Origin: a virus
Direction: 5' to 3' (one strand)
Length of the DNA: 63,585 nt
IMG/VR virus record: IMGVR_UViG_3300033997_000235
Span: 1-63,585 of that record
Shown here: one piece after another, positions 59,110 through 59,574 of the stretch
Layout of the letters: each line of letters starts with the position of its first letter
Position numbering within the stretch: position 1 is the stretch's first letter
Notes under the pieces: generated by a model
Database searches by the model: none
Seen by the model: the letters and a program-made list of their open reading frames with translations, nothing else
What the model was told of the DNA's origin: nothing
Position numbers and translations under genes: made by a program

Positions 59110-59361
59110 CTAATCGTCCGCGCCCCTGTTGCGCTCTTCGCTCAAGAGCAGCCTGAAGCTATGAAACGCCACCAGATGCCCGCCTCCATTGTTGCGCCAG
59201 GCCTGATGCGTGCTGCGGTAGATGCTTTCAACCTCGACCATCACGCGCCGGTATCGCTCGACTTCGAGCACCAGCCGGCGCATTTCCGGGTTCTCGGTCC
59301 AGATCTTTCGCAGTTCGCCCTTCGTGACCGGGCGGAAGTCGGGGAGGCGGTAGTTGTTCAT
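59110..59361 (-). CDS. Reverse-oriented 83-aa protein directly downstream of a LexA box
   Basis: ATG 59361 (MNNYRLPDF) lies 8 nt from the SOS box. This is the only minus-strand coding stretch in the right arm. Confidence 0.55.
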   Translation of the reverse strand: MNNYRLPDFRPVTKGELRKIWTENPEMRRLVLEVERYRRVMVEVESIYRSTHQAWRNNGGGHLVAFHSFRLLLSEERNRGADD

Positions 59362-59368
59362 GGCAGAA

Positions 59369-59388
59369 TACTGGATATAAAAACAGTA
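59369..59388. promoter_or_regulatory. LexA (SOS) box
   Basis: TACTGGATATAAAAACAGTA has the CTG-N10-CAG form. It matches TACTGTATATATATACAGTA at 17 of 20 positions. Confidence 0.7.
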
Positions 59389-59436
59389 TTCTTGCACGCA
59401 CCTGGCAACCCGTCATCCGCAGCCGATGCGCGGCAG

Positions 59437-59574
59437 TCATCCAAGGAAACCGGTGCCACAGCACATGGCACCGCACTCCAGGCTGGTGGCCGCGCACCGG
59501 TAAAGCCAGGCGATCACGTCGGCAATGATCTGGGTGGCGACTTCGATAAGCAGATCGCGAAGGAAGTGTTTCAT
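59437..59574 (-). CDS. Possible 45-aa hydrophobic Cys-rich peptide upstream of the SOS box
   Basis: MKHFLRDLLIEVATQIIADVIAWLYRCAATSLECGAMCCGTGFLG. Below the track cut-off, weak RBS. Confidence 0.3.
   Translation of the reverse strand: MKHFLRDLLIEVATQIIADVIAWLYRCAATSLECGAMCCGTGFLG

Follow-up and report, generated by a model that had tools for sequence, protein, structure and literature searches.

The orf83 locus and its predicted LexA box

The window analysed here, meaning the whole 63,585-nt stretch of the IMG/VR virus record IMGVR_UViG_3300033997_000235, contains a small minus-strand gene, orf83, which is directly preceded by a predicted box for the SOS repressor LexA. The following features were identified at this locus:

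59110..59361, minus strand: orf83, 83 aa with an ATG start, encoding a helical-hairpin protein of an unnamed family (assigned from homologs, coding signature and predicted model)
59369..59388, no strand assigned: predicted LexA (SOS) box TACTGGATATAAAAACAGTA, with its CTG-N10-CAG core at 59371-59386
59370..59375, minus strand: putative -10-like hexamer TCCAGT (TACAGT in most relatives), which is the promoter-distal half of the box and lies 16 nt after GTGCAA (from column conservation)
59392..59397, minus strand: putative -35-like GTGCAA, read on the gene strand, with the conserved TGCAA just upstream of the box (from column conservation across 37 contexts)

Compared with the E. coli-type consensus TACTGTATATATATACAGTA, the box TACTGGATATAAAAACAGTA matches at 17 of 20 positions, with mismatches at positions 6, 12 and 14. 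When the window was searched with the 20-mer consensus, allowing up to three mismatches, this was the sole site found, and none of 100 dinucleotide-preserving shuffles yielded any site at that threshold. The bare CTG-N10-CAG pattern is not rare in the window (42 observed vs 30 +/- 5.5 expected). Among these copies, only the one at 59371-59386 combines an A/T-rich spacer with TA...TA flanks, so it is the spacer and the flanks that distinguish TACTGGATATAAAAACAGTA from the common loose pattern. The site is a palindrome with an A/T-rich spacer, as is characteristic of the LexA operator type of Gamma- and Betaproteobacteria (ideal TACTGT-N8-ACAGTA). The ATG of orf83 is separated by 7 nt from the end of the 20-mer and by 9 nt from the end of the 16-mer core. 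Direct reading of these positions agrees with the first-pass annotation, which had described a box fitting 17 of 20 LexA consensus positions at 59369-59388. Its distance of 8 nt to the ATG holds approximately, and the lack of a Shine-Dalgarno sequence before orf83, which it had also pointed out, was confirmed.

Because of its homologs, its coding signature and the selection acting on it, orf83 is considered a genuine gene encoding a protein under purifying selection. Its homologs form 27 clusters with 49-98% identity, all without names, and a profile search of 1.84 billion representatives retrieved 151 clusters (50% identity) at E<=1e-3. The GC content at the first, second and third codon positions (GC1/2/3) is 0.62/0.39/0.82, and the pairwise ratio of nonsynonymous to synonymous substitution rates (dN/dS) ranged from 0.09 to 0.5 in seven comparisons. 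The conserved features of the family include an N-terminal LPxFxPxT..ELR..W motif, RRLxLExxRxR, an invariant Trp, a GG turn and a C-terminal ER.R. The AlphaFold2 model, with a predicted local distance difference test (pLDDT) score of 85, places helices at residues 14-23, 25-58 and 62-78, giving a long helical hairpin after an initial short helix. The protein is basic (isoelectric point 9.8) and hydrophilic (grand average of hydropathy, gravy, -0.87), with no membrane segment. Homologs of named origin came only from Pseudomonas, Achromobacter, Pigmentiphaga, Cupriavidus and Burkholderia, and none was enterobacterial.

The homology and structure searches proposed for the 83-aa protein yielded the homolog family described above and no named family or fold match. 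Searches with orf83 itself gave no match in Pfam (E<=1), PHROGs, NCBIfam or PADLOC, and 74 family members gave only stray hits against Pfam. The PDB sequence-profile search returned noise only, and Foldseek of the model against PDB and BFVD found nothing below E = 1, a helical hairpin being too generic for fold matching. Distant members match two PHROGs of unknown function, and the C-terminal extensions of longer members contain no Pfam domain. Two homologs, gp32 of Burkholderia phage phiE125 (213 aa, L138 3501-4142) and P0063 (207 aa), each contain two tandem copies of the domain. Because such tandem domain duplications exist among the homologs, the single-domain 83-aa proteins probably act as dimers. 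A 95-aa version of orf83 with a GTG start was also considered and rejected: the N-terminal 'EEYCFYIQY' extensions of several database gene calls represent the SOS box in translation, and the distance between box and ATG shifts among homologs by non-multiples of 3.

Box-gene pairing and promoter geometry in relatives

The pairing of box and gene was followed across homologous loci, which are cited by their L numbers. In a first-round sample of 34 loci from genomes and IMG/VR, a CTG-N10-CAG pattern was present 9-16 nt before the ATG of the homolog in 32. Overall, ~45 distinct homologous loci were collected. With the exception of one lineage, the box is found a short distance before the homolog, usually 9-25 nt from the ATG. 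As background, CTG-N10-CAG occurs at a rate of 5.6e-4 per nt and CTGT-N8-ACAG at 8.5e-5 per nt. In 37 unique sequence contexts, the pattern TA-CTG-T...ATA-CAG-TA hardly varies and its CTG and CAG are invariant, while the surrounding DNA is ~30-50% conserved. The observed distances between box and ATG (9, 11-16, 18 and 22-25 nt) vary by non-multiples of 3, and the box is therefore non-coding. Relatives with only 27-38% protein identity, found in Betaproteobacteria (Achromobacter, Cupriavidus and Burkholderia phage phiE125), retain the box as follows:

L042/L050/L051, Achromobacter pulmonis and IMG/VR: box 22 nt before the ATG
L048, Achromobacter xylosoxidans: box 13 nt before the ATG
L043, Cupriavidus: two boxes at the head of an operon
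L044/L045 and L049, metagenome, beside tRNA att sites: box 9-11 nt before the ATG
L046, metagenome: box 48 nt before the annotated start and nearer to an upstream in-frame ATG
L052-L055, IMG/VR: box 22-25 nt before the ATG
L047/L057, metagenome and IMG/VR: box shared with divergent umuD-umuC, ~160-190 nt
L138, Burkholderia phage phiE125 gp32: box 18 nt before the ATG

Residues 2-85 of phiE125 gp32 are homologous to the orf83 family (hhalign probability 95.4%, E = 1.8e-8). One copy, in L056 (460-520), has decayed, with a one-mismatch box (CTG-N10-CAA) and an ORF (open reading frame) broken by an in-frame TAG.

Phage backbones, flanking DNA and repressors, CI among them, differ between the box-bearing loci. 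Since host LexA is the only trans-factor common to all box-bearing phages and hosts, we strongly infer LexA control of orf83. The phylogenetic footprint of a LexA operator was recovered across diverged genomes, the only intact exception being the L026/L030 lineage. The initial proposal that the small gene is under SOS control is therefore strongly supported on comparative grounds, the pairing being kept in nearly all homologous loci of both Gamma- and Betaproteobacterial phages. Judged from these alignments, the SOS box is more strictly conserved than the orf83-family protein itself.

Conservation also extends to a short segment beside the box. The TGCAA element precedes the box by 4-10 nt; over the 37 contexts, positions -10 to -6 relative to the box start show 62-89% conservation, and the farther flanks fall to ~30-50%. 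With this element as part of a -35-like hexamer, the predicted transcription start lies ~1-3 nt before the ATG, or at it, in the group with 9-nt spacing, and LexA bound to the box would cover the promoter spacer and the -10 element. A leaderless or very short-leader transcript fits this conserved geometry.

Genomic neighbours and phage setting

Throughout the Pseudomonas branch, orf83 is a solitary gene opposing an otherwise unidirectional block, on F116-like, P2-like and other backbones (including L035-L041). Its 3'-side neighbour is variable and may be phrog_5434, a C5-methyltransferase or a PAPS reductase. The genes flanking orf83 are common to F116, H66, LKA5 and other phages, although orf83 is absent from those records. 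A tblastn search of 50,697 phage records with orf83, P0214 and P0116 gave no match, and the distant member P0086 reached Burkholderia phages weakly. In the Betaproteobacterial branch, family members are found at typical cargo positions, beside att sites or genes for lysis or tail fibres (L042, L044, L048, L049 and phiE125). The conserved promoter-like segment travels with the gene, the orientation is independent of the surroundings, and both presence and insertion context vary. From these comparisons of sequence and gene order, orf83 behaves as a mobile accessory gene (moron).

The Betaproteobacterial branch also revealed recurrent neighbours. A gene for SRAP (PF02586, YedK/HMCES-type), an abasic-site shielding protein, is directly adjacent to the family member in 7 of 12 distinct distant lineages, in either order, with the box between the two genes or upstream (L042, L043, L044/L045, L048, L049, L053 and L055). 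In phiE125, gp32 is divergent from gp33, which is annotated as an SRAP protein (L138 2744-4142). This arrangement suggests that the family member and SRAP constitute a two-gene SOS module in Betaproteobacterial prophages. The paper defining SRAP noted its occurrence in proteobacterial prophages and did not describe a small family of the orf83 type (Aravind et al. 2013). At L047 (3072-5333) and L057, the family member is divergent from umuD (S24, 146 aa) and umuC (Y-family polymerase). The region between them contains a perfect SOS box, TACTGTACATGCATACAGTA, and a gene for a Cap4 nuclease is located beside these genes. A 116-aa stand-alone S24 gene is convergent with the family member in L029/L040/L041. 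L043 4656-7045 (Cupriavidus pinatubonensis CP080767.1) adjoins an integrase and contains an apparent operon that begins with two perfect SOS boxes, CTGTATATCCATACAG and CTGTATATGCATACAG, and comprises a small Zn-ribbon-like ORF, the orf83-family member, SRAP, DUF2188 and an ATP-dependent DNA ligase.

The window as a whole resembles a complete temperate Pseudomonas phage genome of the F116-like type, the minus strand carrying the structural genes (~1.7-44.5 kb) and the plus strand the early genes (45-63 kb). The RdgC, NdpA and methyltransferase genes of the early arm are 75-83% identical to those of F116, H66, LKA5 and phiC725A (F116-like). A megablast search of the structural half (window 1-25000) against the 50,697 phage records returned zero matches, so the phage is only distant kin of sequenced isolates. 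The structural half includes a minus-strand ORF of 3225 aa at 1702-11379. The early-arm stretch 52100-58650 on the plus strand contains RdgC and NdpA-like nucleoid-associated genes, named via the annotation of matching phages, together with a PAPS-reductase-like gene and two large DNA methyltransferase genes directly upstream of the orf83 locus. The switch region and the convergent neighbour of orf83 comprise:

44962-45186, minus strand: Cro, divergent from CI (domain scan of the switch region)
45267..46064, plus strand: CI repressor with HTH_3 and Peptidase_S24 domains (S24 E = 1e-15), 13 kb from orf83
58640..59107, plus strand: convergent upstream neighbour gene, phrog_5434 (unknown function, E = 2e-28), with its stop codon 2 nt from the orf83 stop

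Placed 13 kb off the CI/Cro switch, orf83 sits within the CI-side ('early-left') operon. The plus-strand gene gap around it extends from 59108 to 59736, where a 30-aa ORF follows, or to 59833, the next large gene. Three aspects of the first description of this arm stand: the ~720-bp gap in plus-strand genes (59108 to 59833), the S24 autocleavage domain of CI, and the unique strand switch in the right arm, a GC3-based gene call giving orf83 as the sole convincing minus-strand gene at 45.2-63.3 kb.

An insertion separates the conserved promoter segment from the 30-aa ORF in the window, and the features in this region are:

59434..59736, no strand assigned: ~300-bp insertion between the conserved promoter segment and the 30-aa ORF, found by alignment only in the window and L012
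59437..59574, minus strand: 45-aa hydrophobic Cys-rich ORF inside the insertion, not supported as part of a cassette
59602..59650, plus strand: terminator-like hairpin followed by UUUU, inside the insertion (-18.5 kcal/mol, z = -3.6, 1 of 200 shuffles as stable)
59737..59829, plus strand: 30-aa Cys-rich ORF MNTPTYCRETGRRIGVCPCPLCKPKKPTED with C-x10-CxCxxC, the divergent neighbour of orf83 in close relatives

The insertion had no match in the phage collection, and a known RNA within it was rejected, as no Rfam family was found. The 45-aa ORF had been proposed as an upstream, same-strand companion in a cassette of small genes. The ORF exists, and it is not supported as a conserved gene: it occurs in L012 only among the 34 loci, has only one near-identical cluster among 5.8 billion proteins and no family, and shows a weak coding signal (GC3 0.72, with only 7 substitutions for judging selection). 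Being confined to the insertion in the window and one relative, it was rejected as a cassette member, which leaves one gene, orf83, instead of two. The plus-strand hairpin was also flagged in a scan that included sigma-70 promoters; should it act as a terminator, it would divide the early-left operon at this position, ahead of the 30-aa ORF. A minus-strand 'terminator' at 59451-59473 was rejected, being no more stable than shuffles (z = -0.3). The 30-aa ORF is 57-100% identical in L001-L003, L005, L011-L016, L026 and L030, is separated from orf83 by 65-108 nt in loci without the insertion, and is probably a real micro-gene. A family-wide two-gene module of this ORF and orf83 was rejected, as the 30-aa ORF is confined to backbones of the window type.

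Role of orf83 and comparison with known systems

On balance, we consider it probable, with moderate confidence, that the locus is a self-contained LexA-repressed accessory transcription unit (moron) inserted backwards in the early-left operon of an F116-like temperate Pseudomonas phage. Sequence and conservation suggest that, as long as the lysogen is undamaged, LexA of the host would occupy the box over the spacer and -10 element of a weak promoter (GTGCAA, 16 nt, TCCAGT), keeping orf83 silent. Following established SOS biology, DNA damage would activate RecA, LexA would cleave itself, and the promoter would fire to produce an essentially leaderless mRNA. This mRNA would encode the 83-aa basic helical hairpin, probably dimeric. 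Genomic associations suggest that the product does not serve as a dedicated part of the switch in this phage; the gene appears to travel across phages as SOS cargo. SRAP is its repeated neighbour, and umuDC or a stand-alone S24 peptidase adjoins it in single lineages. Most likely, orf83 acts as a mobile accessory factor of the SOS response and not as a dedicated component of the switch.

Several observations weigh against this account. The L026/L030 lineage (~5940-5995) has no box and carries a canonical GAGGAG Shine-Dalgarno sequence and a different upstream region instead, so LexA control is not obligatory for an orf83-family protein; this lineage is a natural 'deregulated' variant and a useful comparison. 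A generic sigma-70 scan of both strands found no promoter at the orf83 locus, and the promoter assignment is consequently drawn from conservation. The window and almost all loci of the Pseudomonas branch have no SRAP, umuDC or S24 neighbour (SRAP in 0 of ~35), so that the functional reading is transferred from relatives with 27-38% identity. Adjacency to SOS genes is also known for true antirepressors, as in the Gifsy dinI-gfoA operon and the Tum-DinI fusion (PMC3121763), and such neighbours therefore do not discriminate between the readings.

A more specific role can be proposed tentatively: the orf83 family, conserved from Pseudomonas to Burkholderia, may be a hitherto unrecognised phage-borne SOS effector. 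Its members would be small, helical and dimeric, would be produced only once LexA has been cleaved, and would bind a central component of the damage response, thereby tuning damage tolerance, mutagenesis or prophage induction. Candidate partners would be SRAP-DNA crosslinks, UmuD/Pol V, RecA filaments, or S24-family repressors including LexA or CI. Such an orf83 would be a functional counterpart of DinI, DdrR or gp7 on an unrelated fold.

It is rather unlikely that orf83 is a LexA-controlled trans-acting antirepressor (GfoA/GftA- or Tum-like) that binds its own CI, or the repressor of a co-resident prophage, and triggers or reinforces induction. The resemblance is that Tum, AntC and GfoA/GftA/GfhA are small proteins behind a LexA box, that Fels-1, with a cleavable CI-type repressor, still carries an antirepressor acting on other prophages, and that the Gifsy antirepressors share a LexA-controlled operon with the SOS gene dinI, parallel to the SRAP adjacency (PMC3121763). 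The restriction of the orf83 family to temperate phages and integrative elements is in line with such a function. However, orf83 has no similarity to Tum/DinI, P22 Ant/KilAC (P22_AR_N, ANT, KilA-C) or any Pfam family, and no fold match, and the CI of the window has its own S24 autocleavage domain, unlike the Tum-type dependence on a non-cleaving repressor. In the contig IMGVR_UViG_3300031548_000574, orf83 is 84% and the adjacent C5-methylase 98% identical, whereas CI is only 42% identical; orf83 thus does not co-vary with CI in this one informative contig, the best CI relative in isolates and IMG/VR having 48% identity. None of 80 CI homologs had a family member at a distance of up to 10 kb, members of the family occur on F116-like, P2-like, lambda-like (phiE125) and other backbones, whose repressors differ, and sequenced F116-like phages do without orf83. 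The early suggestion of an antirepressor or second induction trigger accordingly found no support, given the missing Tum/DinI or Ant similarity, the lack of CI co-variation, the position away from the immunity region and the unrelated backbones, although no single one of these points is decisive. L039 encodes a separate P22_AR_N protein elsewhere.

An SOS-induced effector directed at the host, which might inhibit growth or division, act as a toxin or exclude superinfecting phages, appears improbable. Moron architecture and typical cargo positions (att sites, lysis and tail-fibre genes; L042, L044, L048, L049, phiE125) would suit it, and tight LexA repression combined with a near-leaderless mRNA is a common way of silencing a harmful product. 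The orf83 protein, on the other hand, is soluble, basic and helical without a membrane segment (gravy -0.87), and known small SOS division inhibitors and toxins are unlike it in this respect. There is no PADLOC match and no conserved antitoxin-like partner adjoining the gene, and the normal Shine-Dalgarno context without a box in L026/L030 argues against strong toxicity.

Very little speaks for an antisense transcript as the functional output, running into the convergent early-left genes and acting by transcriptional interference or RNA pairing in place of the protein. The gene does oppose all its neighbours throughout the Pseudomonas branch, its stop lies 2 nt from that of the convergent gene, and no terminator-like hairpin is present downstream; nevertheless, purifying selection acts on the protein, whose conservation extends down to 27% identity, and Betaproteobacterial family members often run in the same direction as their neighbour (SRAP-orf or orf-SRAP), so the antisense geometry is not kept.

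Hardly credible, finally, is a box that is a fortuitous, non-functional palindrome or that controls plus-strand genes (the 30-aa ORF and beyond) instead of orf83: close relatives do have it in a ~70-110-nt divergent intergenic region between the 30-aa ORF and orf83, and no consensus sigma-70 promoter was detected on either strand, yet the box tracks orf83 homologs, is present in all branches without the 30-aa ORF, always on the orf83 side and usually <=25 nt from the ATG, is parted from the 30-aa ORF in the window by the ~300-bp insertion with its plus-strand terminator-like hairpin, and is excluded as a chance site by the shuffles (0/100) and the background rate across 37 contexts.

Temperate phages and their hosts use LexA-controlled prophage genes to link DNA damage with induction, mutagenesis and prophage cross-talk, and the understood effectors are few: Tum, the Gifsy antirepressors, DinI-like proteins and gp7. 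The orf83 family, with ~151 clusters and found here in Pseudomonas and Burkholderiales phages and prophages, is widespread and a candidate for a missing SOS effector. Its link with SRAP offers a handle on why phages carry SRAP, and members in culturable phages (phiE125, phi1026b) ease experimental work.

The proposed LexA-repressed accessory unit shares features with several described systems. In the dinI-antirepressor (gfoA/gftA/gfhA)-irsA loci of Gifsy-1/-2/-3 in Salmonella, a LexA box directly precedes a small prophage gene, away from the immunity region and linked to an SOS gene, in temperate phages only (PMC3121763). No sequence relationship to these loci was detected, the GfoA/GftA reference sequences not having been part of the comparison. 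The Gifsy repressors are non-cleavable, whereas the CI of the window has an S24 domain, and the orf83 unit is a single reverse-oriented gene, the SOS gene beside it in relatives being SRAP or umuDC, not dinI.

Coliphage 186 Tum, expressed from the LexA-repressed p95 promoter, is similar to the proposed unit in having a stand-alone LexA-repressed promoter in a temperate phage and in producing a small protein only after DNA damage. Tum is 146 aa long with a DinI-like half, whereas orf83 encodes an 83-aa all-helical hairpin without any Pfam match, DinI included. The tum gene is co-oriented with the early operon, and orf83 is antisense to it. Tum has been described as a fusion of an antirepressor with DinI (PMC3121763).

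The lambdoid DinI-like genes, Acinetobacter DdrR and gp7 of Bacillus phage GIL01, whose products bind RecA, UmuDAb or LexA, resemble orf83 in their small size and in damage-regulon membership or S24 neighbours; in L047 this S24-family neighbour is umuD, in L040 it is a stand-alone S24 gene, and the window has the S24 CI. By this analogy, it is plausible that orf83 binds an SOS protein as DinI, DdrR and gp7 do. The likeness is functional, as there is no detectable homology to orf83, and the DinI fold is alpha/beta, in contrast to the predicted helical hairpin of orf83. DdrR has been described as unique to Acinetobacter, and gp7 is a LexA corepressor (PMC11332147).

The closest relatives in described phages are the hypothetical proteins phiE125 gp32, phi1026b gp31 and phi644-2 gp31 of Burkholderia phages (phrog_17852), which share N-terminal homology, the SOS box and the position of an accessory gene beside attP. 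The 213-aa phiE125 gp32 differs in its apparent tandem domain duplication and in being divergent from the SRAP gene gp33, while the window has no SRAP. The regulatory logic of the orf83 unit is of an already known kind; the effector family and its linkage with SRAP and umuDC are new as far as the searched databases and literature show.

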